Notes: generated by a model from the sequence alone, not told the origin. 64,000 bases of DNA from Thermoproteota archaeon (GCA_030550155.1 JAUQPZ010000004.1:1298-65297); one strand, 5' to 3'. Shown: positions 16,569 to 60,127, counted from the stretch's first letter. Numbers and translations: made by a program.

Positions 16569-16607
16569 AAAGTTTACACCCTATGGCTCGGTTAATGCGA
16601 GACGGTG

Positions 16608-16683
16608 TGGGGCCGGTGGGATTTGAACCCACGACCTCCTGGGCCCAAGCCAGGCATCTTGGACCATGCTCGACCACGGCCCC
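16608..16683 (-). tRNA. tRNA-Pro (anticodon TGG)
   Basis: Manual cloverleaf. Acceptor GGGGCCG/CGGCCCC, anticodon stem CCTGG/CCAGG with loop CTTGGGC, T-arm GTGGG-TTCAAAT-CCCAC, discriminator A. 76 nt. Confidence 0.85.
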
Positions 16684-16738: not shown

Positions 16739-16966
16739 TTAAACCACTATCGCGGTCTCGGTGCTCTCAACTCCCTCTATGGTGTGTATCTTGGACAGGA
16801 TGGTCTCGGCCAGGCTCTTCAGGTCAGCCGCCTCGATAAGAACGATCACATCGTACCTACCAGTCACCATGCACGCCATTTTGCAGCCGGCTAGCTTGCC
16901 GACACCCTCAGCCACACTCGAGGCCTTCCCAGCCCTCGCCCGAATCAAGACAAACGCCTGAACCAC
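16739..16966 (-). CDS. Stand-alone Lrp/AsnC C-terminal (RAM) domain protein, 75 aa
   Basis: VTGRYDVIVLIEAADLKSL fits the RAM-domain beta-alpha-beta-beta-alpha-beta pattern. It is a paralogue of the 22270..22548 protein. Confidence 0.55.
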   Translation of the reverse strand: MVQAFVLIRARAGKASSVAEGVGKLAGCKMACMVTGRYDVIVLIEAADLKSLAETILSKIHTIEGVESTETAIVV

Positions 16967-17592
16967 GGGATATCAAGCACAACCAGCCGATATAACGTTT
17001 TTCTTAACTTCACAGGGAGCCCCAACCGATGTGAAGAGTGGAGGCGAGTCGGGTGAAGCTGTGAAGAGTGAAATAATACCCTGAACATGCCTGGGCACCT
17101 CCCCTCAATACGCCAAGTATGAGCCATACATGTGGAGAAACAATACTCTGACGTTTTCTCGGTATTGCTGGTTGTTGCAGAAAAAGAATAGATTCCCAGG
17201 GATTTTCCCCTGACCCCGGCCCCGCTGCCCAAACCCCCCATACATAGGTGAAGGCTGTGGTGAAAGGTGGCTTCACGGTTTCCACAGGCTCCACTGGAAG
17301 CTAAGGGGTTCAATGAAGAATAGGGTGGCTTCACAGTGAAAAGGGTGGATAACGGGTTTCTAGGACTCTGAAGACGTTTAAGAGTCTTCAGGCCAACGAA
17401 TGAACATGGATTCTTGACGAGGACTGTATAGGGAATTCGTAAATTCCTCCCCCACCCCAGCTTTTCGGATGGAAATTAACTAAAATCAACACAAACGGAG
17501 GCTGAAAATAAATAATAAAATAAATAGTTGATAATAAGGTATGATCTTTTCTACAAGCCATCGTTAATTCCTCTCTAAGGGCTACAGTTATT
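16967..17592. other. Probable origin of replication (oriC) upstream of orc1/cdc6
   Basis: 626-bp non-coding region adjacent to Orc1/Cdc6. It holds an ORB-like inverted pair GGTTTCCACAGG/CTCCACTGGAAG at 17277..17300 and related GGTGGCTTCAC repeats at 17267 and 17324. Direct repeats GTGAAGAGTG lie at 17031 and 17061. An 8-bp hairpin CTGAAGAC...GTCTTCAG spans 17368..17391. An AT-rich stretch at 17455..17560 is a candidate unwinding element. Confidence 0.6.
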
Positions 17593-18864
17593 GTGGCTGA
17601 CTTTCAATTGAAACTAGGGGGTGATCCTCTTGGCGACCTGCTCTCCAAGATCTCGGCTGCTTCACGCATTTTTAAGGACCGAGAGGTGTTGAGGGCTGAC
17701 TATATTCCGGGGAACCTGCCGCATAGGTGGGAGCACATTAAGAGGCTGGGAGAGATAGTCTCGACCGGCCTATCCTTGCACAGGCCCAGCAACGTCTTCA
17801 TCTACGGGAAAACAGGGACAGGTAAGACCGCCGTCGTCAAGCACGTCTTTAAAAGATTCGGCGAGGAGGCCGCGAGACTCGGAATCCCCCTCCGCTTCGT
17901 ATACATTAACTGCAGAATCGCCGGCACAGAGTATAGAGTGTTGACCGAGCTCTGCGACTCTGTCGGAGTCAAGGTCCCGTTTACGGGGTTGTCGAAGGGT
18001 GAGGTCTTCAACAGGTTTCGAAGAGGCCTAGCCTCCTCTTCCGCCCTCCTTATGGTTTGCTTGGACGAGATCGATGTCTTGGTCAAGGGCTTCGGGGACG
18101 CTTTGCTATACGAGCTCACAAGGATTAACGAGGGCCTCGAGAGCAGCGGCCTCTCCCTCATAGGCGTCTCAAACGACCTCATGTTTAAGGAGATGCTTGA
18201 CCCCAGGGTCCTGAGCAGCCTCAGCGAGGAGGAGATCGTCTTTCACCCGTACACCGCCATCGAGCTCGTCGATATTCTGAGTGAGAGGGCTAGGCTGGCC
18301 TTCCACGGGGGAGTAGTCCCCGACTCAACCATTAACCTATGCGCAGCCTTGGCAGCGGCTGAGCATGGAGACGCTAGACGGGCCCTCGATCTTCTGAGGG
18401 TTGCAGCTGAGATCGCGGAAAGGAATATGGCTGAGAGGGTTGAGGAGCAGCATGTAAGGATGGCTATGGGCGTGATTGAGCAGGGCCGCGTCTACGAGGC
18501 GCTGACCACGCTACCACTGCATGGCAGGATGGTTCTACTCGCGGTCTACCACGCCTACACAAAGTCCAGCAGCAAGATAACATCGGGGATGATCTATCAG
18601 ATATATAGGGAGCTATGTAGTCACCTCGGCCTCGAACCCCTCACAGATAGACGGGTTAGCACACTTATCTCGGAGCTAGACATGTTGGGCGTCCTCTCGA
18701 GCAACGTCGTGAGCTACGGCCGCTACGGAAGGACAAGGCGTATCTCGCTGAAGATCGCTGCGGACGAAGTTAGGCAGGCCTTGGAGCGTGATGAGCTCCT
18801 CTCACATCTCTTGGACCAGAACATAGCGATGATGGGTAGCGATGGGAGTGAGCGAGGCCGCTAA
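17593..18864 (+). CDS. cdc6: Orc1/Cdc6 replication initiator (AAA+ plus winged helix)
   Basis: Walker A YGKTGTGKTAV, Walker B LMVCLDEIDVL, and a C-terminal winged-helix region. GTG start. Confidence 0.9.
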   Translation: MADFQLKLGGDPLGDLLSKISAASRIFKDREVLRADYIPGNLPHRWEHIKRLGEIVSTGLSLHRPSNVFIYGKTGTGKTAVVKHVFKRFGEEAARLGIPLRFVYINCRIAGTEYRVLTELCDSVGVKVPFTGLSKGEVFNRFRRGLASSSALLMVCLDEIDVLVKGFGDALLYELTRINEGLESSGLSLIGVSNDLMFKEMLDPRVLSSLSEEEIVFHPYTAIELVDILSERARLAFHGGVVPDSTINLCAALAAAEHGDARRALDLLRVAAEIAERNMAERVEEQHVRMAMGVIEQGRVYEALTTLPLHGRMVLLAVYHAYTKSSSKITSGMIYQIYRELCSHLGLEPLTDRRVSTLISELDMLGVLSSNVVSYGRYGRTRRISLKIAADEVRQALERDELLSHLLDQNIAMMGSDGSERGR

Positions 18865-20284
18865 GAGGCTTGCCTCTAGAGCCATCGAGCGTGGCTACCA
18901 GCTAACAGCAGAGACCCTAAACAGGCTAATTAAGGTCGAGAACCCTCAGACACTTCTGGACGAGTTCCTGGCTTGGCTCGACGAGAAGAGGATTAACCAG
19001 GTTATTATCGACGAGTCCCTCCTCGGCCTCTTCCTCAGCAGCAGGGTGAAGGAAGCCGAGAAAAGTGTTGGGGAGTCTATCCCCGAGGTTGTCGTGGAGT
19101 CTCCGACCTACGAGGACTTGATGATAGAGGGCGTGGCGGAGGAGCAGAGGCTCTACCTGCTATCAAGGTTCCAGTCAATTAGAAGAGTGTTTGAGGGACG
19201 GGGCCTCAGCTTCAGGCCGGTCAGGGAGCTGATGAAGGAGGGTGGCGAGGGGTACGTTGTGGGCATGGTCCTGAGCATCAGGAGGCGGGACACGCATTTT
19301 CTCATAGAGATGGAGGACCCCGTCGATGTCTGGAACATATTCGTACCTACACGCGATAGAGCGTTAGCCGAGAAGACGGAGTACCTCCTCCAAGACATGG
19401 TCGTCGTCTTCCGTGCGAGGGCGCGGAAGGGGCTGCTCATAGCCAGTGACGTCTATCTGCCCGACATCCCCAGCAGGAGGCAGACATGGAGAGGCCCCGA
19501 CGTAAACGTCTGCATAATCTCTGACATACATGTCGGTAGCAGGAGACATGCGGCGGAAAAGTTCAGAGAGCTCATAGACTGGTTGCGCGGCTCCGAGAAC
19601 GAGGCGGAGAAGACGGTCCTCATGATAATCAATGGGGACCTCGTCGACGGAGTCTACGTCTACCCGGGGCAGGAATCTGAACTGAGCCTAATGTCCTATG
19701 CCGACCAGTTCGCTGAGGCCGCGAAGCTGATTTCAGGAATCCCTGAGCGCCTTAAGGTAATCTATGTCCCCGGAAACCATGAGCCCTGTAGGAGGGCGCT
19801 CCCCCAGCCACCCATACAGGCAAGGTATAGGCAGATACTCAGCCAAGGCAGAGAGCTGGTTTACGCGGGGAACCCTGCCTGGATTAGAGTCGGCGGCATC
19901 AGGATACTAGCATTCCACGGCCAGACGCTGGACGACATCATACAGGCCGGCACGAGGTTCAGCTACTCGACCCTGCGCGAGAGGTCTGGAGAGATGATGG
20001 AGCTGCTGCTCAAGTCCAGGCATCTGGCGCCTGCGATGGGCGTGGTCACCCCGCTACTACCTACGCGGACCGACTACCTGTCGATACCTGAGCCTCCTGA
20101 CCTACTCTGTCTCGGTCATACGCACGTCGCGGCCTTTACAACGTATAAGGGCGTGCAGCTGGTCAACAGCGGCTCTTGGCAGAGGCAGACCAGGATTCAG
20201 GAAAGCATCGGCCTTGAGCCCAGCGTGGGGACGGCGGCCCTATTTAACTTGAACGCGATGTCGATTCGCTTTCTCTCTTTTTAG
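18842..20284 (+). CDS. polB: DNA polymerase II (PolD) small subunit DP1
   Basis: Calcineurin-like phosphoesterase motifs in DP1 order: ISDIHVGS, INGDLVDG, PGNHE, AFHGQ, LGHTH. An N-terminal OB-like region is present. The gene overlaps the cdc6 3' end. Confidence 0.8.
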   Translation: MGVSEAAKRLASRAIERGYQLTAETLNRLIKVENPQTLLDEFLAWLDEKRINQVIIDESLLGLFLSSRVKEAEKSVGESIPEVVVESPTYEDLMIEGVAEEQRLYLLSRFQSIRRVFEGRGLSFRPVRELMKEGGEGYVVGMVLSIRRRDTHFLIEMEDPVDVWNIFVPTRDRALAEKTEYLLQDMVVVFRARARKGLLIASDVYLPDIPSRRQTWRGPDVNVCIISDIHVGSRRHAAEKFRELIDWLRGSENEAEKTVLMIINGDLVDGVYVYPGQESELSLMSYADQFAEAAKLISGIPERLKVIYVPGNHEPCRRALPQPPIQARYRQILSQGRELVYAGNPAWIRVGGIRILAFHGQTLDDIIQAGTRFSYSTLRERSGEMMELLLKSRHLAPAMGVVTPLLPTRTDYLSIPEPPDLLCLGHTHVAAFTTYKGVQLVNSGSWQRQTRIQESIGLEPSVGTAALFNLNAMSIRFLSF

Positions 20285-22591: not shown

Positions 22592-22695
22592 TGGGGCCGG
22601 CCGGATTTGAACCGGCGACCTCCGGGTTTCTTCTGTGCCAGCGCTTCTGAACCAGATCTGGAGCCCGGCGCCCTACCTTGCTAGGCTACGGCCCC
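22592..22695 (-). tRNA. tRNA-Trp (anticodon CCA) with a ~30-nt intron in the anticodon loop
   Basis: Acceptor GGGGCCG/CGGCCCC, T-arm GCCGG-TTCAAAT-CCGGC. Anticodon stem CCGGG ... CCCGG is interrupted after CTCCAG by atctggttcagaagcgctggcacagaagaa. 104 nt total. Confidence 0.7.
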
Positions 22696-46189: not shown

Positions 46190-47038
46190 TCAGACCCAGG
46201 CCGCGAACTCGCAAGAATTAGTGGAGTTGCCGGCGCAGAGCGTCTCTATGCACGAGACATCCTGAGAGCCGTAGGCCTCCCCCAGCAAGCCAGAGACCAC
46301 GCCTCTGAAAAAGTGGCTATTATTACTTCCGCTCCTCCGCTTAGCGCATTCAAAGAGGTCCTTAACAATGATCCTCCAGAACCTCTTCACCGGGTCGCCC
46401 GAGTACCCCTCAACAACACACCAACCAGCTGCCTGCAGCTCGGCCAACGAAATCTGCGCAAGCTCATCAAACGTCAGGCCCGTTTCTTCCCTAACCTGCC
46501 TCGTAAACAGAACACCATATTGCCTACCCAGATCATAGAGGAGAGTGTTTGCAGCCTCCCCCAGCCTCTCCCTCAAATGGTCAATCATGCCGCCCAGAAC
46601 CTCGACCGAGAAAGCCACCGCCCTATTACCGCCCAACAATAATGGGAAGAGATGTTTATTGATGGTTACGCCTCCGGTGAGATACCCATTCACCGATAAG
46701 CCCTCAACGACCCCTATCCCACCCAAACTATTCGCCAGGCCCTCCGCGCTCAGGCCAGAGTCCGTGTAGTCGACGAACAGAGAGACCACGACTTTGCCAT
46801 CCGGAGCCCTTGCAATAGAGCCGTTCACGAACTCGATCGAGCCCCTCGAAGCAATCGACGAGAGCAGCACAATTAGTCCAGCTAAGTCCGATGAAACAGA
46901 CGTCACCTCAGCAATGCTCCTACCGCGCCTAACACAGAGAGAAGGCAGGTAAACAGGTATGCGGAACGAAGACTTCACATTTTTTAACCAGTAGTGCTCG
47001 CCTGGGTCGGATGTCCATGTAGCCGTGGATGTGACCAC
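46190..47038 (-). CDS. V4R (4-vinyl-reductase) domain-containing protein
   Basis: The C-terminal region has the V4R-like pattern (YDLGRQYGVLF ... GWCVVEGYSGD ... CAGNSTNSCEF). 282 aa. Confidence 0.45.
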   Translation of the reverse strand: MVTSTATWTSDPGEHYWLKNVKSSFRIPVYLPSLCVRRGRSIAEVTSVSSDLAGLIVLLSSIASRGSIEFVNGSIARAPDGKVVVSLFVDYTDSGLSAEGLANSLGGIGVVEGLSVNGYLTGGVTINKHLFPLLLGGNRAVAFSVEVLGGMIDHLRERLGEAANTLLYDLGRQYGVLFTRQVREETGLTFDELAQISLAELQAAGWCVVEGYSGDPVKRFWRIIVKDLFECAKRRSGSNNSHFFRGVVSGLLGEAYGSQDVSCIETLCAGNSTNSCEFAAWV

Positions 47039-47109
47039 GGGAATACTACCGCGCGCGTATTTATAAATTTTGTTGATCAGTTAATCTATATTTTTAACGT
47101 GATACCTGT

Positions 47110-48291
47110 TTGTATCTTAAAAGTTTATATAGTGGGCATGCGAACGATATAGCCAGACAAACTTTGACTAACAAGAACCAAGATTTGGCCAAAAATAAGA
47201 AACGCGTAAATCACAACGGAGAGTTCATAAAACTTTTAGACGCCCTAAAGGCCTATGGGCCGCGAAACCTCTCACTCATCTCCATTCTCACCGGAATACC
47301 GCGCGAAACCGTAAGATACAAGGTGAAGAAGCAGCTCAGAGACTTCGGATTCACAGTCCAAATGATGCCCAATTTCTACAAGTTAGGATTAACAAGACTT
47401 TACGCGAAAATTTCATTCACTAGGCATGGAATGAAGATAGCGCAAAAACTATTACACGAACTGGGGATAGGCTCGTATCTATCATACTATTGCAAAGTCG
47501 CCTTCAAAAACGACTATATCGCCATAATAAACCCGCCATCGAAATGGGCGAACAAGTTTAGTGAATTCTTCGAGAGACTGGCGAGCGAAGGAATAGCCAA
47601 GGATTACGAGGTCCAAGAGATTAAAGAAGTAGGATACCCGCACGTGTCTTATCGCCTCTTCAACTTCGAGAAAGGAACATGGAGCCTCAATGAAGAGGAG
47701 TCGCGCACTAGCGAGGGTGTAGTCCTGCAGAGGGCCTCGAGGGATGAAGCAACCAACTATCTGATGGATTCTTCGGACCTCGCGATAATTACTGAATTAC
47801 AGGCGGATGCCTTTAAACCGCTAACAAAAATCTCAGAGATTGTCAATCGGGACCCGAGGCTCCTAAGATATCACTTCCAAGAGCACGTAGTCCGGAAAGG
47901 ACTAATTGCGGGGTATGTGTTAAGCTGGTTCCCAAGGGGCGTTGACGCCCCTCATCTCTCGCGTATCTGGCTCAAGACAGACCCACTCACCACCCAAAAA
48001 GCCATCGAATTCTCTAGGATCACTTCCACGTCACCATTCTGTAAATTCTATCAAATACTAGAAGACGGCACAGGCATGGTCTATATGCTAATTGACAGAC
48101 AATTCACATCTGCTGTCAGACACCTTTCCAAACTATTGATGGAGCATGATATAGGCTGTGAATCCATGATTGTGGACGACGCGACTGCGTTCTCATTGAC
48201 GATGGAGATGTATAAAGAAGGATATGGATGGCTAAAACCAAAACTAGACGACACAATAACAATGACACTACACGAAATGGCCCGTCAATAA
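47110..48291 (+). CDS. Hypothetical tandem-HTH (Lrp/AsnC-like, duplicated) regulator encoded in a low-GC island
   Basis: Two Lrp-like HTH segments (LISILTGIPRETVRYKVKKQL and AIITELQADAFKPLTKISEIVNRDPRLLRYHF), each followed by a ~100-aa domain. Gene GC is visibly lower than its surroundings. Confidence 0.45.
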   Translation: MYLKSLYSGHANDIARQTLTNKNQDLAKNKKRVNHNGEFIKLLDALKAYGPRNLSLISILTGIPRETVRYKVKKQLRDFGFTVQMMPNFYKLGLTRLYAKISFTRHGMKIAQKLLHELGIGSYLSYYCKVAFKNDYIAIINPPSKWANKFSEFFERLASEGIAKDYEVQEIKEVGYPHVSYRLFNFEKGTWSLNEEESRTSEGVVLQRASRDEATNYLMDSSDLAIITELQADAFKPLTKISEIVNRDPRLLRYHFQEHVVRKGLIAGYVLSWFPRGVDAPHLSRIWLKTDPLTTQKAIEFSRITSTSPFCKFYQILEDGTGMVYMLIDRQFTSAVRHLSKLLMEHDIGCESMIVDDATAFSLTMEMYKEGYGWLKPKLDDTITMTLHEMARQ

Positions 48292-48745
48292 ATTCCAACT
48301 TAGAACGGGTCCTTCCCGATTGGCGGTCCCTGGCACTCCATTCTGACCATCACCGCTCTTAGCAGCATTGCTACTGGTTATAAGTCTTTTCCTTAAAAGC
48401 AAATTTTCCGTAAATTATTTGTGAATTAGGAAAAATAGGAGGCGGACTATTTTTGCTTTCTAATGTTTAGAAAAGCGTTTTTCAGTATTATTTAAACTTT
48501 CGCTCACAGTGGGGTTTTCAAGTTTTATTGGCATTGGCCATAGAACTGTCAATTAGCGGAGAATGTTCGTCGGATTAACTTCAAGTCCGACACATATCAC
48601 GTTGTACTCAGTATCCAATTTACGGATTTTTGTTTTGGGAAACCAATATTTGTGCGAAGAACGTATGTTTTAGAGACTATAAGGCTCGATTACGTCTGTT
48701 AGTAAAAGTTTTTTAAAGTGTCCCGCTCATCAGCCTTAGAAAACT

Positions 48746-49945
48746 GTGGATATGGTGTTAATCAGGTTTAACTTCGGTCTCACTCGCGACTTCTGGATTC
48801 TAATGCTCTCCCTCTTGCTGATTAATATGTTCGGGCTGGGTTTCAGCCCGTTTCTGCCTTACTTTCTTCGCGAGATAGGTGCCAGCATCTCAGAGGTTGC
48901 GTTTGTCTTAGCTTTCTCAAGGATAGCTTATACCTTGTTGCTTAGTGTGGGTGGCTTAGCAGGCGACCTGGTTGGTAGGAAGGCGCCGATGATTCTGGGC
49001 CCGGTTATAGTGGGCGCGTCGTATATTGTTCTCGCGGGAGCTAGGTCTTGGAGCGACGCAATCTTGCCGCTCACCTTTTCCTTACTGCCCGGCGCATTTA
49101 TCGCCCCTGCAGTCTTCGCATACATTGGTGACGTTGTCGAGCCGCTTAAATACGGTAGAGCATTTGGCATCTACTATTCGATCATGAATATCAGCGCTAT
49201 TCTCGGCTATCTGATAGTTGGCTCCTTGGTGGATAGATTTGGCTACAGTTTTAGCATATTAGCTGTCGGTGTCGTAGCGATACTTGGCGCTTTCACCAGA
49301 GTCTGGCTTCGAGAGACTAGAAGGGCCGTGAAAGAAATAGCGGTCCTGGTATACCTAAGGGAGGCCTACGGATATCTGAGACAGAGGGTCGTGCTCTTAC
49401 TGGTTATCTTACTAAGCCTCTACATGGGGTTGGCTAGTGTTTTGGACTCTGTTATCTTTCCGCTCTGGGCTAGAGAGATAGTCTCGCTGAAAGAGGTTGA
49501 CTTCTCCATCATTCTCTCTTTAGAGGCGGCTATCTACTCGATGCTGTCTCCGATAGGCGGCCGCCTAGCCGAGTCAAGGACTCTTTGGATCTATCTCTCA
49601 GCCCTCGAGCTCCTAATCAAGATACCGGCTCTGCTACTTCTCTCACATGCGACGAGCTTCTTACAGCTGCTCGCAGTCCTATTACTTAATTCTGGATTAG
49701 CGATATTTGTCATTCCAGGTCTCAATTCGCGGCTTTCAGCAGCGCTTAGCAGCGCGCATAGGGGAGCCATCTGGGGGATGCAGCAGTCCTTTATCTCGGC
49801 TGCAACCATCTGCTTCACATTGATTGGGGGCTATGCCTGGGAGTCTCTGGGAAATGTAATCACGGTCCATATCTTTCTTTTCTACCCTGTCGTGATGGTT
49901 TTGCTTCTTGTTGTTTTGGCCGGTCTAGAGCGGCGAGGAGCCTAA
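48746..49945 (+). CDS. Major-facilitator-superfamily transporter
   Basis: 12 TM, MFS motif GDLVGRK after TM2. 399 aa. Confidence 0.7.
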   Translation: MDMVLIRFNFGLTRDFWILMLSLLLINMFGLGFSPFLPYFLREIGASISEVAFVLAFSRIAYTLLLSVGGLAGDLVGRKAPMILGPVIVGASYIVLAGARSWSDAILPLTFSLLPGAFIAPAVFAYIGDVVEPLKYGRAFGIYYSIMNISAILGYLIVGSLVDRFGYSFSILAVGVVAILGAFTRVWLRETRRAVKEIAVLVYLREAYGYLRQRVVLLLVILLSLYMGLASVLDSVIFPLWAREIVSLKEVDFSIILSLEAAIYSMLSPIGGRLAESRTLWIYLSALELLIKIPALLLLSHATSFLQLLAVLLLNSGLAIFVIPGLNSRLSAALSSAHRGAIWGMQQSFISAATICFTLIGGYAWESLGNVITVHIFLFYPVVMVLLLVVLAGLERRGA

Positions 49946-54225: not shown

Positions 54226-57051
54226 GTGGCGGGTTTGTCTGAGGGCGAGGAGCTTCTCTGCCGGCCGGTTCTCGAGGCGGTGAGGGAGAGGTTCGGCGGC
54301 CTTGCGGAGACTCAGAGAAGCGCGCTCCCTCACATTATTAGCGGCGAGAATGTTCTCATAGTCTCGCCTACGGGTACGGGTAAGACTGAGGCCGCGCTCC
54401 TCCCCATATTCAGCATGGTTCTCACAAACCCCGAGGTGCGGCCAGTCTCAGCCCTCTATATCACGCCCCTGCGAGCCCTCAACAGAGACCTGCTAGACAG
54501 ACTTGAATGGTGGTCCCGCCGCCTCGACATCTCAATCTCCGTCAGACACGGCGACACGTCTCAGCGCGAGAGGAGGATGCAGGCACTAAGCCCCCCACAT
54601 ATACTGATAGCTACTCCCGAGGCCCTCCAATCACTACTCATAGGCCGCGTCGTAAGGAGAAGCCTCTCCAATGTCAGGTGGGTTGTCGTTGACGAGGTTC
54701 ACGAGCTGGCCACGGATAAGAGAGGCGCCCAACTTGCCGTCGCTCTTCAGAGGCTCAGACGGATAACGGGGAGGCAGTTCCAGCTGGTGGGGCTCTCAGC
54801 CACCGTGGGCGAGCCCGAGGAGGTTGCCAGGTTCCTTGTGGGGCCGGCTGGAAGATTTGTGGTTGTGGAGACCAAGATGCCGCGGGCGCTAGAGGTTGAT
54901 GTAGTCTTCCCCGAGCCGGAGCGAGCTGATTTCGAGATGGGCGAGTCGATAGGCGTCGCCCCAGACGTTGCGGCTAGAATGAGGACAATACTGGAGCTGG
55001 TCTCGAGGCACTCCTCCACACTGATATTCACCAATACGCGGCCACTGGCTGAGGCTCTCGCGAACAGGTTCAAGGCATGGGACGAGGCGCTCCCAGTCTC
55101 GATTCACCACGGCTCCCTCTCGAGGGACCACAGGGTTAGGGCTGAGAGAGAGCTGAAGTATGGCGAGGTGCAGGGATTGATTTGCACGTCGAGTCTCGAG
55201 ATGGGTATTGATGTGGGGCGAGTAGACCTCTGCATACAGTATAACTCGCCTAGGGAGGTGACGAGGCTGATTCAAAGGGTTGGGAGGAGCGGGCACAGGA
55301 TAGGCGGGGTTGCTCGCGGAGTGGTCCTCGTGATGGACTCGGATGACGCTCTGGAGGCTATTGTAATCTCGCGGCGTGCAAGGTCCGGCGAGCTTGAGCC
55401 GGTAAGGGTGGTGAAGAACAGCCTGGACGTCGCGATGCACCAAGTGGCAGGTCTCCTCCTCGAATACGGCAGAATCATGCGGGACGAGGTTACAGCCCTG
55501 CTCAGAAACACCTACAACTTTGCAACACTCGAGGAAAGCGACCTCGACTCACTTCTAAGATACATGGAAACGCTAGGCATTGCGAGGGTGCTGGATGGAG
55601 TAGTCGCGAAGCCAATAAGGGCGAGGAGACTGATAGAATATTATTTCGACAACCTCTCCATGATCCCTGAGGAGAAGCAGTATCTCGTGGTTGAGGAAGC
55701 GACCGGCGAGCCCGTCGGCATACTGGACGAGGCTTTCGTCGCTGAGTATGGCGAGGTGGGAACGCGGTTTATTCTAGGTGGTAGGGCGTGGCTGATACTG
55801 AACCTCTCGGGGACAAGAATCTATGTTGCTAGGCTGAAGGAGGGTGAGGGAGCTGTGCCATCATGGGTTGGCGACGAGATTCCAGTACCTCTCGAGGTGG
55901 CCATGGAGGTTGGCGCCATTAGGAGAAGGTTCGTCGAGTTGAGGGCCAGCGGCGTGGGCGCTGAGGAGGCGTCCATGGTCTTGGCGGCTGAGTATGGCGT
56001 GTCATCAGCCTTCATGAGGCGCTCTCTCAGAGAGGTTGAGAAGCACATGGCCACGAGCATCCCGGTCCCCACCGATAGGCAGATAGTCGTTGAAGAAGCA
56101 GGTGAATACGTTGTCCTCCATGTGACAGGCGGACTCAGAATCAACAGAACACTCGCACGCCTACTCACGGTCCACCTCGCCGAGAGGATTGGTGCGCCTG
56201 TCTCAGCGCAGTCAGACCCCTACAGGGTGGTCCTGAAGTCTAGGAATCTTAACGCAGTCGATGTAGTTAAGGCCCTTCCGGAGCTAAGAGATGAGGAGCT
56301 GCTGAGGAGGGCTGTCGAGTCTTCAGGAGTTTTCAGGAGAAGGCTGGTCCACGTTGCCAGGAAGATGGGTGTCGTGGGTAAGGATGTGAGTCTCCTAGAC
56401 GTTAGCGCTCAGATGCTTGTCGAGTCTCTAAGAGGTACACCCGCCTATCTCGAGGCCCTAAGATTCACCATCTTCACAGACTACGACTGGGACGGGGCCA
56501 AGACTCTCCTTGAGAAAATACTTGGTGGCGAGATTAGGGCGGAGACGTGCAGCCTTGAAAGGCCAAGCCCCCTGGCCTACCTCACAATCAACAGGTACCA
56601 GTACGAGTATGAGACATACACGCCTGAGAGGATGCACAGGCTCTTGGTAAATGCTGTCAGGGCTAGGATAAACAGTGAGCTGGTGGTGCTTGCATGTCTA
56701 GACTGCCGTAAATATCTCGAGACGGTTGAGGTGGGCGAGATCGATAGTAAGCCTGTCTGCCCGACCTGCTCCTCCCAACGCATAGGAATAGTCGCGACCG
56801 CCGGACGCGAGGAGGTTGAGCGCGTTATGCGTGGAAAGACAGCCGAGTCTAGAAGATACTGGAGGGAGGTTGAGAAAACCGCCCCCTTGGTCGAGAGGTA
56901 TGGAAAGACTGCGGCCTTCCTTCTCTCAGCCCGCGGAGTCAGCGTCAAGGAGGCTGAGCAGCTTTTGAGCGAAGAGCCTCGAATCTCACCCAAGCTGATA
57001 GAGAGGATTATAGAGCTCGAGAAGAAGGCCCTTCTAAAAGAGTTCAGCTAG
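54226..57051 (+). CDS. lhr: Lhr-type large superfamily-2 helicase (Lhr-core with C-terminal zinc-finger domain)
   Basis: Walker A SPTGTGKTEAA, DEVH box (VVVDEVHEL), and SAT, QxxGRxGR (LIQRVGRSGH) motifs. A C-terminal CxxC...CPTC ribbon is present. 941 aa. Confidence 0.8.
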   Translation: MAGLSEGEELLCRPVLEAVRERFGGLAETQRSALPHIISGENVLIVSPTGTGKTEAALLPIFSMVLTNPEVRPVSALYITPLRALNRDLLDRLEWWSRRLDISISVRHGDTSQRERRMQALSPPHILIATPEALQSLLIGRVVRRSLSNVRWVVVDEVHELATDKRGAQLAVALQRLRRITGRQFQLVGLSATVGEPEEVARFLVGPAGRFVVVETKMPRALEVDVVFPEPERADFEMGESIGVAPDVAARMRTILELVSRHSSTLIFTNTRPLAEALANRFKAWDEALPVSIHHGSLSRDHRVRAERELKYGEVQGLICTSSLEMGIDVGRVDLCIQYNSPREVTRLIQRVGRSGHRIGGVARGVVLVMDSDDALEAIVISRRARSGELEPVRVVKNSLDVAMHQVAGLLLEYGRIMRDEVTALLRNTYNFATLEESDLDSLLRYMETLGIARVLDGVVAKPIRARRLIEYYFDNLSMIPEEKQYLVVEEATGEPVGILDEAFVAEYGEVGTRFILGGRAWLILNLSGTRIYVARLKEGEGAVPSWVGDEIPVPLEVAMEVGAIRRRFVELRASGVGAEEASMVLAAEYGVSSAFMRRSLREVEKHMATSIPVPTDRQIVVEEAGEYVVLHVTGGLRINRTLARLLTVHLAERIGAPVSAQSDPYRVVLKSRNLNAVDVVKALPELRDEELLRRAVESSGVFRRRLVHVARKMGVVGKDVSLLDVSAQMLVESLRGTPAYLEALRFTIFTDYDWDGAKTLLEKILGGEIRAETCSLERPSPLAYLTINRYQYEYETYTPERMHRLLVNAVRARINSELVVLACLDCRKYLETVEVGEIDSKPVCPTCSSQRIGIVATAGREEVERVMRGKTAESRRYWREVEKTAPLVERYGKTAAFLLSARGVSVKEAEQLLSEEPRISPKLIERIIELEKKALLKEFS

Positions 57052-57664
57052 CTTGCTCACCGCCCTCTTCTGGCCCGGTCTTCTCCTGAGCCTGCCTTAA
57101 CTCTCCGTTACTGCTAAGTGAAGCAAAAGCTTTGAGGAGCTCCTGTCTATCAACCTCCACAAGCGTCCTCCACCCAACCGAGACCACCCCCTCCTCGGTC
57201 CTAGCCAAGTAGCCCCTCCTTGCGAGCCTCTCCAAGGCAGCCTCAACCCTCCACCTGGGATACTTAGTTTCAAGCATCTCGACGACCTCTTTCTCGGAGG
57301 CGCTCCCATTCTTCGCGAGCAGATATGCCAAGGTCGCAGAGAGTATTGCGAGCTCGTCGAGGCTGTAGCCTAGCGTCTGGATGTCTGAGAGCGTGAGCGG
57401 GTCTGAGAGGACTATGTAGAACCTGGCCCTGTCTAGGTCGTCTGGCCCCGCGTCCGGGTCGGGGACGAGCTTGACCCTCAGCCCGATCTGCTTGAGCCTA
57501 GAGTCGAGGGAGTTGATTATCTTCGGGAAGTTTTTCCCGAGCCTCCTCCTAAGCTCCCAACCCCTAACACCTGGAAGCCTATGCCCCGAGGCGAGGATCA
57601 ATGCTACGGCCTGGGCCATCTTCTTCTCCAGCTTACTCAGCTCCTCAGCGCCCACACTCTTCAC
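57044..57664 (-). CDS. scpB: ScpB-like protein (tandem winged-helix; kleisin-interacting subunit)
   Basis: 206 aa with two wHTH modules. The N-terminal AQAVALILASGHRL resembles the ScpB EALLF.SGEPL motif. Its start overlaps the scpA stop. Confidence 0.55.
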   Translation of the reverse strand: MKSVGAEELSKLEKKMAQAVALILASGHRLPGVRGWELRRRLGKNFPKIINSLDSRLKQIGLRVKLVPDPDAGPDDLDRARFYIVLSDPLTLSDIQTLGYSLDELAILSATLAYLLAKNGSASEKEVVEMLETKYPRWRVEAALERLARRGYLARTEEGVVSVGWRTLVEVDRQELLKAFASLSSNGELRQAQEKTGPEEGGEQAS

Positions 57665-58392
57665 CTGCCTACAGTTATGGCTAGAGAGGTGGTCCTCGGC
57701 TCTTCAGACGGAGCCTTGGCCGCCCTTATCTTGATCTCTCTGCTTAACGTGTTTATTCTCACCTCAACCTCACCCCTCGATATGAGGTAGCTCAGCAGAT
57801 AGGCTCGGGCAGCCTTCTCCCCCTCACCCCTACTCCTCACAAAATCCCAATAATCAATCCAGCCGTCGATCGACGCGAGCTCCGCGAGCAGCCCCCTAAG
57901 CTCCTCACTTATCTGGCTCTCAATAGCCGTGTAGACCCCCGGCCTCTCCACGGCGAGTTTAAGTTCTTCGGCCATAGCTACTCCCCGGGTGGGCCTTGAG
58001 AGGAAGTGCTGATAACCCCTCAACAACAGGTCCATAGAGATTTGCTCAAGCCTAATTATCGGTCTCCAAGCCTGGAGAAGAGCCGCCACTAGCATCCTCG
58101 CATCCGACCCCAGTATCTTGGAATAGATCATGCCGGCATCTATGAAGAGGGAGGAGGCTCTCTCCCTGATCCATCTTTGCTGGAGGCCTAGCACGATGGA
58201 GACCCTGTATAGTGTCTCGGCGTCAAGCGTGATGGTCTCGACGTCCCTCTCCCTCTCGATAATCTCTCGCAGCCGCGCCAGAAGTGAGGAGACGTCAACG
58301 CTGAATGGGTCAAGCCTTCTTGACTCTATCTCTCCAAGTATGGATATCATTCTTAGAAGCTCTTCCCTCGGAATTTTAATGCTCTTGCTCAC
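57661..58392 (-). CDS. scpA: ScpA-like kleisin
   Basis: N-terminal LDPFSVDVSSLLARLREII matches the ScpA FDGPLDLL...I.I motif. There is a C-terminal winged-helix-like region. 243 aa. Its start overlaps the SMC-like gene stop. Confidence 0.6.
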   Translation of the reverse strand: MSKSIKIPREELLRMISILGEIESRRLDPFSVDVSSLLARLREIIERERDVETITLDAETLYRVSIVLGLQQRWIRERASSLFIDAGMIYSKILGSDARMLVAALLQAWRPIIRLEQISMDLLLRGYQHFLSRPTRGVAMAEELKLAVERPGVYTAIESQISEELRGLLAELASIDGWIDYWDFVRSRGEGEKAARAYLLSYLISRGEVEVRINTLSREIKIRAAKAPSEEPRTTSLAITVGR

Positions 58393-60127
58393 TCTTCTCC
58401 ACCGATGTGGTAACGAAGGAGGACCCGGCCACGTTCTGGACTATGATGAGGTTGAAGCCGTCGGTGATGGGGAGCCTACCCGGGGTGATGAAGAGGAACT
58501 GCGTCGAGGGATAGGATCTGGCTATCTCAACAAGTATCTGGGTAACCATCTCCCTGTTCAGGGGGTCTAGGTGGACGTCGAACTCGTCCACAGCTCTTAT
58601 GGGTGAGCGGACGTAGCTCTGGAGTGCAAGTAGAAAGGCAATCGTCGCGACAACCCTCTCACCGCCGCTGTGCGTATGGGCGTCAACCATCATGGGCTCC
58701 ATGCCCCTGAACCCTGCCAACAGCTCGAGGCTTGCGCTCGCAGGGTCCTCGATTCCTCTGATCCTGATGACTCCTCTTCCACCTACAGAGCTGAGAAGCC
58801 TCTGATACACCGGATTAATATCGTCTATAATCTCCTTGAGCTTGTCCCTCCATATCTGCCTCCTCTTCTCGACCTCCTCCATCGCCTTCTTTACATTCTC
58901 CTCAACCTGTCTAGCCCTTAGCTCCACTTCCCTGAATCTCGAGTCAGCTAGGAAATACATGGTCTCGGCGTCGGGGATAACCTTTCCAAGCGAGGCAATC
59001 TCCAGCATAGTCAGCCTCAAATCCTCGAGCACGGTGGACGGCTCCCTCTCAGTCTCCACTTCAGCGCCCTTCTCAGAGGCCGCGGCCCTCCGCTCCTCCA
59101 ACTCCTTAAGAAGGCCGTCAATCTCGGACCGAGCCGCCGCCACCTCCCTCTCAAGGCTCGACACCCTAAATCTCCTGACACCCTCCTCCACAGCCACCTT
59201 CACGAGACGTTCTATCAGCTCCAATATCTCGCCCGGCTGAGCGGCCTCGTAGAGCCTCTGCCGAATCCTATCCCTGAAAGCGCCGGCCTCAGCCCCATAG
59301 GCGGCTGCCTCCTCCTCAAGCCGCGCCTTCTCCACCAGCATCCTCTCAAGGGCAAGCCTCCTCCTCTCAAGGCTCTTCCGAACCTGGTGGACGAGGCTCC
59401 ACGCGTATTCAACCTCCAGCAACCCCTTCCTCTCCTCAAGCTCCCTAAGCTGCTGAAGCTTCTGAAGCTCCCTCCTCCAATACTCAACCGCCTCGCCGGC
59501 CTCGGAGAGCAGACGCTTCACGGAAGCTTCCTCAGACCTCAGGTTGTTCAGCCTACTCTCAGCCTCGAGAAGCCTCTCCCTGAGGTGTGAGAGGCCTACG
59601 GCATCCTCCATCGCCTTCAGCTTCTCCATGTTGTCGCGGGCCGCGAAGCTCTCAATCATGTTTTGATGCATAATTACTAGGGCGTTGTTAGGGTTTATTC
59701 CCAGCCTCCTCAGAAGCTCCTCGAGCTCAGCCTTCGGAGTGAACCTGTTATTGACGTAGTGCCAGTATTCTCCGCTCTTCTTTATGTATCGCGTAATAGT
59801 TATCTCCTCAGACTTGACCGATGAGAGGGGCCTCTCACCATCAATCGGGGAGTTATCCAGGACCACGGTCAGCCTGGCCGCATCCCTACCTCTCCTAATG
59901 AGGTCGCTCAGCCTCTGACCCCTCTCGGTATAAGTCTGGCCCAGCGCAACCGCCAAGCCTAGAAGAATGGATGACTTGCCCGCGCCGTTGGGCCCGGTTA
60001 TCACGTTGAGCCCCGGCTCGAGCTTAATCCTCGAATACTCGTGAGACATGAAGTTCTCGAGGATTACCTCGCGTATATGCGTGGGCCTAGCCTCGGCGCC
60101 TATCTGTCCAACCCTAGTCCTCGCCAA
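58376..60127 (-). CDS. Short SMC/Rad50-like ABC-ATPase (583 aa; no hinge or zinc hook recognised)
   Basis: N-terminal head FMSHEYSRIKLEPGLNVITGPNGAGKSSIL, a central ~300-aa heptad-rich region, then the C-terminal signature HSGGERVVATIAFLLAL and Walker B AVDEFDVHLD. It is the first gene of an operon with scpA and scpB. Confidence 0.65.
   Translation of the reverse strand: MARTRVGQIGAEARPTHIREVILENFMSHEYSRIKLEPGLNVITGPNGAGKSSILLGLAVALGQTYTERGQRLSDLIRRGRDAARLTVVLDNSPIDGERPLSSVKSEEITITRYIKKSGEYWHYVNNRFTPKAELEELLRRLGINPNNALVIMHQNMIESFAARDNMEKLKAMEDAVGLSHLRERLLEAESRLNNLRSEEASVKRLLSEAGEAVEYWRRELQKLQQLRELEERKGLLEVEYAWSLVHQVRKSLERRRLALERMLVEKARLEEEAAAYGAEAGAFRDRIRQRLYEAAQPGEILELIERLVKVAVEEGVRRFRVSSLEREVAAARSEIDGLLKELEERRAAASEKGAEVETEREPSTVLEDLRLTMLEIASLGKVIPDAETMYFLADSRFREVELRARQVEENVKKAMEEVEKRRQIWRDKLKEIIDDINPVYQRLLSSVGGRGVIRIRGIEDPASASLELLAGFRGMEPMMVDAHTHSGGERVVATIAFLLALQSYVRSPIRAVDEFDVHLDPLNREMVTQILVEIARSYPSTQFLFITPGRLPITDGFNLIIVQNVAGSSFVTTSVEKSEQEH

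Follow-up and report, generated by a model that had tools for sequence, protein, structure and literature searches.

A probable Orc1-1-dependent replication origin upstream of orc1/cdc6 in an uncultured Caldarchaeales archaeon

Does the spacer upstream of an archaeal orc1/cdc6 gene hold a chromosomal replication origin and, if so, where does the core of that origin lie? We examined this question in a 64,000-nucleotide stretch of DNA from a Thermoproteota archaeon (GCA_030550155.1, JAUQPZ010000004.1:1298-65297; hereafter the window), in which gene calling and Pfam place a spacer of 626 bp (16967-17592) between a minus-strand AsnC/Lrp-domain gene and orc1/cdc6. The original prediction had described this spacer as a gene-free candidate oriC carrying inverted repeats that resemble origin recognition boxes (ORBs), a hairpin and an AT-rich unwinding element. 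Our analysis supports an origin at this place: with a probability of roughly 0.8, we conclude that the spacer together with the start of orc1 forms an Orc1-1-dependent chromosomal origin of the oriC1 type. The clade of the initiator, the restriction of ORBs in the 64 kb to this locus, the polarity of these ORBs and a layout conserved in 26 of 26 related loci all argue for this conclusion.

The window comes from a metagenome-assembled genome (MAG), and the same Orc1 protein is found, identical, on further MAG contigs, for example in GCA_038829665.1. Related proteins, 59-87% identical to it, carry the labels Caldarchaeales, Calditenuaceae, Terraquivivens, Caldarchaeum or Aigarchaeota and, on the basis of these labels, we assign the host to the uncultured Aigarchaeota (Caldarchaeales).

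Origin recognition boxes around an AT-rich interval

For the detection of ORBs we built a 26-nt log-odds matrix from 44 ORBs located upstream of orc1 in relatives, excluding the window, and scanned the 64 kb on either strand, 128 kb in all, at a threshold of 8 bits. Exactly three matches were found, all of them at the orc1 locus within 340 bp and arranged in the order +/-/+ (ORB-A, ORB-B and ORB-C; Table 1). In 100 first-order Markov simulations of the window, 0.17 matches per window reached at least 13.3 bits and 0.01 at least 17.8 bits, with a top score of 18.4; the full ORB-A, at 31.2 bits, is beyond the reach of chance. The same matrix gives 26.5 and 16.4 bits to the two footprinted ORBs of the Sulfolobus islandicus oriC1 fragment P23, indicating that it is not self-referential.

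Part of ORB-A had already been noticed, in the form of an inverted pair GGTTTCCACAGG / CTCCACTGGAAG whose second half was said to equal the archaeal ORB core on the opposite strand. Both halves are present as given (17277-17288 and 17289-17300), and the reverse complement of 17290-17299 is indeed TTCCAGTGGA. This core does not by itself rise above chance: the 10-nt sequence TCCASWGGAA has one match in the window against 0.63 expected, at least one match occurs in 49 of 100 shuffles, and a core expected about 0.6 times per window is therefore no proof alone. The pair is better read as a palindromic dyad, TCCACTGGA, with an additional half-site, TCCACAGG, immediately on its 5′ side. Right after CTCCACTGGAAG comes CTAAGGGGT, with the G-string AGGGGT at 17304-17309, and the element is therefore a complete ORB (dyad and G-string) with a defined polarity and strand. 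This G-string, as well as ORB-B and ORB-C, had been missed in the original prediction, which thus recognized one ORB correctly and underestimated both the number of boxes and the extent of the element.

The half-site arrangement at 17281-17299 reads TCCACAGG-C-TCCACTGG. The extra half-site is kept as TCCAC(A/C)NG-CTCCA in loci L004-L014 of the relatives, with three copies in L008 (about -330 to -290), and may offer a second docking site for the winged-helix domain.

The proposed AT-rich block was confirmed, with a GC content of 0.25-0.30 over 17460-17579 compared to 0.57 in the neighbourhood. Its lowest-GC 60 nt (22%) are at 17473-17532, and the plus strand of the AT-rich interval, our candidate duplex unwinding element (DUE), is A-rich. 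ORB-B and ORB-C turn their dyads inward to this block and their G-strings outward, with dyad centres 139 bp apart, and ORB-A, oriented toward ORB-B, is 174 bp upstream of it. The polarity of ORB-B and ORB-C is that of ORB3-DUE-ORB2 in S. islandicus, whose oriC1 fragment has a left ORB on the minus strand and a right ORB on the plus strand and reads G-string, dyad, 94 nt at 21% GC, dyad, G-string. Each of the two DUE-flanking ORBs of S. islandicus is needed for firing in vivo (PMC12141716). Because of this matching polarity, the origin core is most likely the segment formed by ORB-B, the DUE and ORB-C, 17452-17624. A core so placed passes the right edge of the predicted element (17592) and enters the first 11 codons of orc1, and the fragment 17260-17350 formerly proposed for binding tests contains only the distal ORB-A. 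Inside the DUE, the block AACTAAAATCAACACAAAC is kept in the closest relatives only. Origins of Sulfolobales and Aeropyrum have an accessory element, ucm/UBP, with the ucm consensus midway along the DUE and UBP encoded in the genome. A footprint at the ORB-B edge of the DUE, AATTAACTAAAATCAACACAAAC (17473-17497), is likewise conserved in the closest relatives only (L004-L010).

The initiator encoded next to these boxes has its best PDB matches in 2qby_A (S. solfataricus Orc1-1, E = 1.1e-111) and 2v1u_A (Aeropyrum pernix ORC1, E = 3.5e-107), and the matches to paralogues are far weaker (Orc1-3, E = 4.5e-49; Orc1-2, E = 5.5e-21). From its protein sequence we identify the adjacent gene as the Orc1-1 orthologue. 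Alignment with the solved structures shows that the strings VPFTGLS, RRVS..I.ELDMLG and GRYG.T are retained; these are presumably the DNA-contacting segments described for 2V1U and 2QBY. The GTG start codon of orc1 at 17593 lines up with the ATG starts of other clades (e.g. MEKFQLKLRG, MEELQRKTGG), and in-frame stops occur just upstream of the start in L007-L009. ORB-C therefore falls in codons 3-11 and is translated, an overlap that is kept across Caldarchaeales clades as (F/L)Q(L/W/R)K..G.

By analogy with work on Sulfolobus, Aeropyrum and Pyrococcus, we propose that Orc1-1 monomers would bind the three ORBs, with the winged-helix domain on the dyad (TCCAnnGGAA or TTTCAnTTGAAA) and the initiator-specific motif of the AAA+ domain on GGGGT, the G-string, some 5 nt to the 3′ side. 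ATP-bound Orc1 on ORB-B and ORB-C would recruit MCM hexamers to the DNA between them, the 31%-GC, A-rich segment separating the two boxes would melt, and ORB-A and the (C/T)TGTGAA(G) repeats flanking it would act as accessory elements. Orc1 on ORB-C may also repress the transcription of orc1: this box occupies +7 to +32 of the orc1 open reading frame (ORF), just past a TATA-like element, and its occupancy should therefore repress the gene.

Conservation in relatives and comparison with mapped origins

Among 26 tabulated related loci of 4.8-7.3 kb from uncultured archaea of hot springs (24 Caldarchaeales and 2 Bathyarchaeia), the +/-/+ triplet is found upstream of orc1 in every one, with hardly any other matches across the loci, and ORB-B keeps its place and direction throughout the 26. 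In the closest relatives ORB-A is found at about -310 relative to orc1, and ORB-C scores 15.6-19.1 bits in L004-L010. The distance between ORB-B and ORB-C is 138-139 bp in the clade of the window, 133-137 bp in L011-L014 and 181-184 bp in Terraquivivens, and that between ORB-A and ORB-B is 173-175 bp in the clade of the window and 183-188 bp in several other clades. The ORB-A to ORB-B distance drops to 75-84 bp in the Calditenuis and L018 clades, with ORB-B to ORB-C still at 134-199 bp. Three Calditenuis loci (L015-L017) have four strong ORBs in the order -/+/-/+ and an ORB-B to ORB-C distance of 198-199 bp over a less AT-rich interval (46-49% GC), an arrangement that varies the three-ORB layout.

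Next to the three boxes, we aligned the spacer of the window with those of six close relatives (alignment A1), obtaining a mean spacer identity of 70%, with indels. Against a spacer that has otherwise diverged, the ORBs and a small number of further blocks are recognizable as phylogenetic footprints. The ORB elements are also kept across clades whose spacers are otherwise unalignable. Taken together, we find at this locus what is expected of an oriC1-type origin, namely an adjoining gene of the Orc1-1 clade, clustered ORBs specific to the locus, inverted ORBs flanking an AT-rich DUE, and conservation at orthologous positions.

One close likeness is to oriC1 of Sulfolobus (Saccharolobus), which also has three ORBs upstream of and abutting a gene of the Orc1-1 clade, builds each ORB from a TCCAnnGGAA dyad and, some 5 nt beyond it, GGGGT, and places two inverted ORBs, dyads inward, around an AT-rich DUE with the third ORB further upstream. 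In both systems, the box nearest the gene may reach into the beginning of the orc1 frame: that of S. islandicus (CTCCAAATGAAATACTGGGGTAGG) includes an ATG in this frame, giving LQMKYWGR compared to FQWKIWGA in Terraquivivens. If the Sulfolobus start codon is that ATG, this hints at an ancient overlap between the ORB and the orc1 frame. The two systems differ in the dyad-to-dyad distance (106 bp in S. islandicus, 139 bp here), in the host, here a member of a lineage that encodes PolD, with dp1 right after orc1, and in the extra (C/T)TGTGAA(G) repeats around ORB-A; no TGTGAA or TTCACA is visible by eye in the 181-bp S. islandicus oriC1 fragment.

The gene order recalls the mapped oriC of Pyrococcus and the Thermococcales (oriC-cdc6-dp1-dp2), where the origin likewise stands directly upstream of cdc6/orc1, followed by the small subunit of PolD, and combines full inverted ORBs with many short accessory repeats (PMC1904270). 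However, the Pyrococcus ORB is longer, with its G-string about 11 nt from the dyad, and the short repeats that accompany it are genuine mini-ORBs, which have TTCC...GAA at their core. The Thermococcales have a second ORB cluster inside dp1, whereas the dp1 coding region here (18842-20284) gives no matrix match of at least 8 bits, and dp1 is followed by dp2 in Pyrococcus but by an amino-acid permease gene in the window. In 35 loci, DPANN included, the DP1 gene is no more than 3 kb away from orc1; in 33 of these it follows orc1 immediately, on the same strand.

A. pernix oriC1 (ORB1-4; ORC1-ORB4 structure 2V1U) has a closely homologous initiator (E = 3.5e-107) and a similar 22-bp ORB, which we take to consist of a CTCCACAGGAAA-type dyad and GGGGT, but two pairs of ORBs surround the DUE there. 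Nitrosopumilus maritimus, a member of the same phylum-level lineage (Nitrososphaerota), has a single origin according to marker frequency (cited in PMC4010727). The Nitrosopumilales locus in our set (L030) also has ORB-like boxes upstream of orc1; these differ in being three tandem boxes on the same strand with a GGTGT rather than a GGGGT tail, and in having no TGTGAA repeats.

Our literature search found no description of an origin for the Aigarchaeota/Caldarchaeales, the genome paper of C. subterraneum merely counting three orc1/cdc6 genes (PMC3082918). The coordinates in Table 1 would thus place an origin, element by element, in a lineage that is without a cultured model. The kind of origin is itself known, and some novelty lies only in the TGTGAA repeat family and the translated ORB. 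Nevertheless, the Sulfolobus core design (G-string, dyad, DUE, dyad, G-string, abutting orc1-1) is seen to reach the Nitrososphaerota side of the TACK archaea and the Bathyarchaeia, and this spread supports an ancient origin of the design. In practical terms, the ORB matrix and the fixed spacings may serve as anchors for MAG assemblies and as a zero point for coverage-based estimates of growth rate in hot-spring metagenomes.

Competing readings of the locus

Several points weigh against an active, principal origin at this site. Firing and Orc1 binding are here argued from sequence and analogy. Both boxes of the proposed core are degenerate (ORB-B at 17.8 and ORB-C at 13.3 bits), and the conservation of ORB-C could in part reflect a protein-coding constraint. 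C. subterraneum has three orc1/cdc6 genes (PMC3082918), and other origins may therefore exist, of which the present one need not be the main one; oriC-type origins are dormant or dispensable in some archaea (PMC12999951). The cumulative GC skew, uninformative over a length of 64 kb, dips locally near 17 kb and further still near 47 kb. In favour of an origin, genes diverge from the site locally, with nine of ten ORFs and a tRNA on the minus strand between 7.8 and 17 kb and five of five ORFs on the plus strand between 17.6 and 25.2 kb; the sign change of the skew near 17 kb tracks this gene orientation and is therefore not independent evidence. Archaeal skews are in any case of low amplitude (PMC12999951).

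The strongest alternative sees in the ORBs chiefly an operator of orc1, and perhaps of dp1, through which Orc1 would bind and repress its own promoter, or else a dormant origin, with replication normally starting elsewhere or by recombination. The location of ORB-C inside the orc1 frame, directly past the TATA-like element, fits such an operator, and the several orc1 paralogues of the Aigarchaeota (PMC3082918), the dispensable or dormant origins of other archaea (PMC12999951) and a 17-kb skew minimum that is not unique in the window would all agree with a silent locus. An operator, however, has no need of three ORBs spread over 340 bp, nor of a strictly conserved 139-bp AT-rich interval, the polarity of the Sulfolobus firing core and spacings fixed by clade. 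Moreover, origin function and autoregulation are compatible with each other, and we therefore regard this alternative as unlikely, though it is the one to be taken most seriously.

A second alternative accepts the origin but moves its unwinding and loading zone to the interval between the convergent ORB-A and ORB-B (17312-17451), leaving the AT-rich block as the promoter region of orc1 only. ORB-A is by far the best ORB, the distance between ORB-A and ORB-B is conserved as well, the interval has a GC content of 0.44 compared to 0.57 for the genome, and the oriC of Pyrococcus contains two AT-rich regions (PMC1904270). On the other hand, the dyads of the Sulfolobus core point toward the DUE and the G-strings outward, the opposite of what the ORB-A/ORB-B pair displays; the ORB-B to ORB-C interval is the AT-richer of the two in 24 of 27 loci; and it is the ORB-A to ORB-B interval that shrinks in the Calditenuis and L018 clades. 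We consider this placement very improbable.

Finally, an ordinary divergent promoter spacer, perhaps with an unannotated small gene or RNA and with a likeness to ORBs arising by chance, would account for a 10-nt core that is expected 0.63 times per window and for a hairpin and some repeats that are weak individually, but it is effectively refuted by the ORB scan, the simulations and the conservation, as chance does not yield a 31.2-bit full ORB, the three matches sit at the orc1 locus with none elsewhere in the window, the elements persist across clades with unalignable spacers, and the spacer has neither an Rfam match nor conserved or family-assigned ORFs.

TGTGAA repeats and the surrounding locus

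Besides the ORBs, an oriC1-type origin at this locus would include a second repeat family, (C/T)TGTGAA(G), which takes in the GTGAAGAGTG and GGTGGCTTCAC repeats of the original prediction. The direct repeats are exact 11-mers, TGTGAAGAGTG, at 17030 and 17060 and belong to this family rather than to the ORBs; of the two GGTGGCTTCAC copies, the one at 17324 was placed correctly and the other begins at 17266 instead of 17267. Ten GTGAA/TTCAC pentamers are found in 17001-17350, compared to a window mean of 0.62 per 350 nt and a maximum of 4 elsewhere. The commonest 7-mers shared upstream of orc1 are CTGTGAA and TGTGAAG; 23 of the 24 loci have them, and their 53 copies compare to about 3 expected. 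Between -750 and -100 upstream of orc1, each of the Caldarchaeales and Bathyarchaeia loci (the window, L004-L029, L028 and L038) has 3-7 copies of TGTGAA, where 0.05-0.8 are expected (Poisson P from 2e-2 down to 2e-11), and the Nitrosopumilales and DPANN loci have 0-1. The copies are placed upstream of ORB-A and between ORB-A and ORB-B, hardly ever in the DUE, and they are often tandem (7-8 nt spacing) or palindromic, as in CTTCACAGTGAAAAG.

Mini-ORBs are 13-bp repeats with invariant TTCC and GAA core motifs (PMC1904270). We ruled out mini-ORBs of the Pyrococcus or Methanothermobacter type for the GTGAA repeats, whose core (C/T)TGTGAA(G) is without TTCC; the outer TTC...GAA is shared with mini-ORBs by the palindromic CTTCACAGTGAAAAG only, and no GTGAA copy reaches 8 bits with the ORB matrix. 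In the absence of a TTCC core, the repeats must therefore be either very degenerate ORB half-sites or the sites of another factor. Tentatively, and with odds clearly below even, we suggest that they are sites of a second origin factor shared within the lineage and that, together with the translated ORB, they represent a lineage-specific elaboration of oriC1. Candidates for this factor would be an Orc1/Cdc6 paralogue or a nucleoid protein that recognizes a specific sequence, comparable to UBP/ucm in Sulfolobus; the factor would be common to the Caldarchaeales and some Bathyarchaeia but not to the Nitrosopumilales or DPANN. The repeat family is thus a testable lead to an accessory origin factor.

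Table 1. Coordinates of the boxes, repeats, genes and other features at the orc1 locus (positions in the window)
Feature	Position	Strand	Remarks
tRNA-Pro gene	16607-16683	-	Left of the RAM-domain gene
Left boundary gene, 75-aa stand-alone AsnC/Lrp ligand-binding (RAM) domain protein, no helix-turn-helix (HTH)	16739-16966	-	Pfam AsnC_trans_reg, E = 3.1e-12
TATA-like ATATAA, putative promoter of the RAM gene (leaderless transcript)	16990-16995	-	24-29 nt upstream of the RAM gene start
GTGAA-repeat cluster 1	17008-17075		Holds both GTGAAGAGTG repeats; conserved blocks in A1; copies CTTCACAG 17008-17015 (minus orientation), TGTGAAGAGTG 17030-17040, GGTGAAG 17052-17058, CTGTGAAGAGTG 17059-17070, GTGAAAT 17068-17074
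Conserved block TTGTTGCAGAAAA	17172-17184		Alignment A1; within the otherwise diverged left spacer
GTGAA-repeat cluster 2	17248-17277		Overlaps first GGTGGCTTCAC copy (17266-17276); copies GGTGAAGG 17247-17254, GGTGAAAG 17259-17266, CTTCACG 17271-17277
Extra ORB half-site TCCACAGG	17281-17288	+	Directly 5′ of ORB-A; with the dyad forms a direct repeat (C/T)TCCAC, 9 nt apart
ORB-A, full-length, AGGCTCCACTGGAAGCTAAGGGGTTC	17286-17311	+	31.2 bits; dyad TCCACTGGA and G-string AGGGGT
Palindromic GTGAA-type site CTTCACAGTGAAAAG	17329-17343		Conserved block in A1; overlaps second GGTGGCTTCAC copy (17324-17334)
8-bp perfect hairpin, CTGAAGAC-N8-GTCTTCAG	17368-17391		Arms 17368-17375 / 17384-17391; 8-nt loop
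ORB-B, inverted, degenerate	17452-17477	-	17.8 bits; minus strand reads AATTTCCATCCGAAAAGCTGGGGTGG
AT-rich interval between ORB-B and ORB-C, proposed DUE	17478-17598		121 nt, 31% GC
TATA-like GTTAATT, putative orc1 promoter (leaderless mRNA)	17563-17569	+	-30 to -24, i.e. 24-30 nt upstream of the start codon
orc1/cdc6 initiator, 423 aa, Orc1-1 clade	17593-18864	+	Pfam Cdc6_C, Cdc6_lid, AAA
ORB-C, variant dyad, GACTTTCAATTGAAACTAGGGGGTGA	17599-17624	+	13.3 bits; within orc1 codons 3-11 (peptide DFQLKLGGD)
DNA polymerase D small subunit (DP1)	18842-20284	+	Pfam DNA_pol_E_B and Metallophos; overlaps the orc1 stop codon

Both boundary genes have TATA-like elements in the spacer. The TAA at 17565-17567 is invariant in A1, and the place of its GTTAATT element suggests a leaderless orc1 mRNA. 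On the other side, the TATA at 16991-16994 is invariant as well and, judged solely by its position, ATATAA would be the promoter of the RAM-domain gene, which is found in the same place in L001-L003 and in six of the closest relatives (L004, L005, L007-L010).

The hairpin of the original prediction is present, but it is neither significant nor conserved. Its DNA fold has a z of -1.84 and 11 of 200 shuffles fold equally well; RNAalifold finds no consensus pairs for it across seven orthologous segments, and single-sequence DNA folds of the relatives range from z -2.2 to +1.3 with no common register. We therefore rejected it as a functional conserved structure, and it is probably incidental. The description of the 626 bp as gene-free was borne out, as the mechanical ORFs within it have no Pfam match and are not conserved in relatives. 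A hidden protein gene was rejected accordingly: the minus-strand ORFs of 129, 94 and 57 aa are fragmented in L004 and unrelated to the ORF of L009. A search of the spacer for non-coding RNA in Rfam, at the gathering threshold and at E ≤ 1, gave the neighbouring tRNA-Pro alone, and a reading as a C/D-box RNA made by eye (ATGAAGA ... CTGA) was dropped because the boxes are not conserved in A1. A scan for promoters and terminators of the bacterial type, which is ill-suited to archaea, gave nothing in the region.

Elsewhere in the window, a 104-nt tRNA match in Rfam at 22592-22695 on the minus strand, not called by ARAGORN, is probably an intron-containing archaeal tRNA. The deepest cumulative GC-skew minimum of the window falls in a low-GC stretch at 47000-49000 (42-46% compared to about 56%), which encodes a 393-aa ORF with a weak AsnC-type HTH match followed by an MFS transporter and may be a foreign island. 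A gene cluster of DNA-repair type at 54226-60127 contains an Lhr-like DEAD/DEAH helicase (941 aa, plus strand) and an SMC_N/Rad50-like ATPase (583 aa, minus strand), with two small minus-strand ORFs between them.

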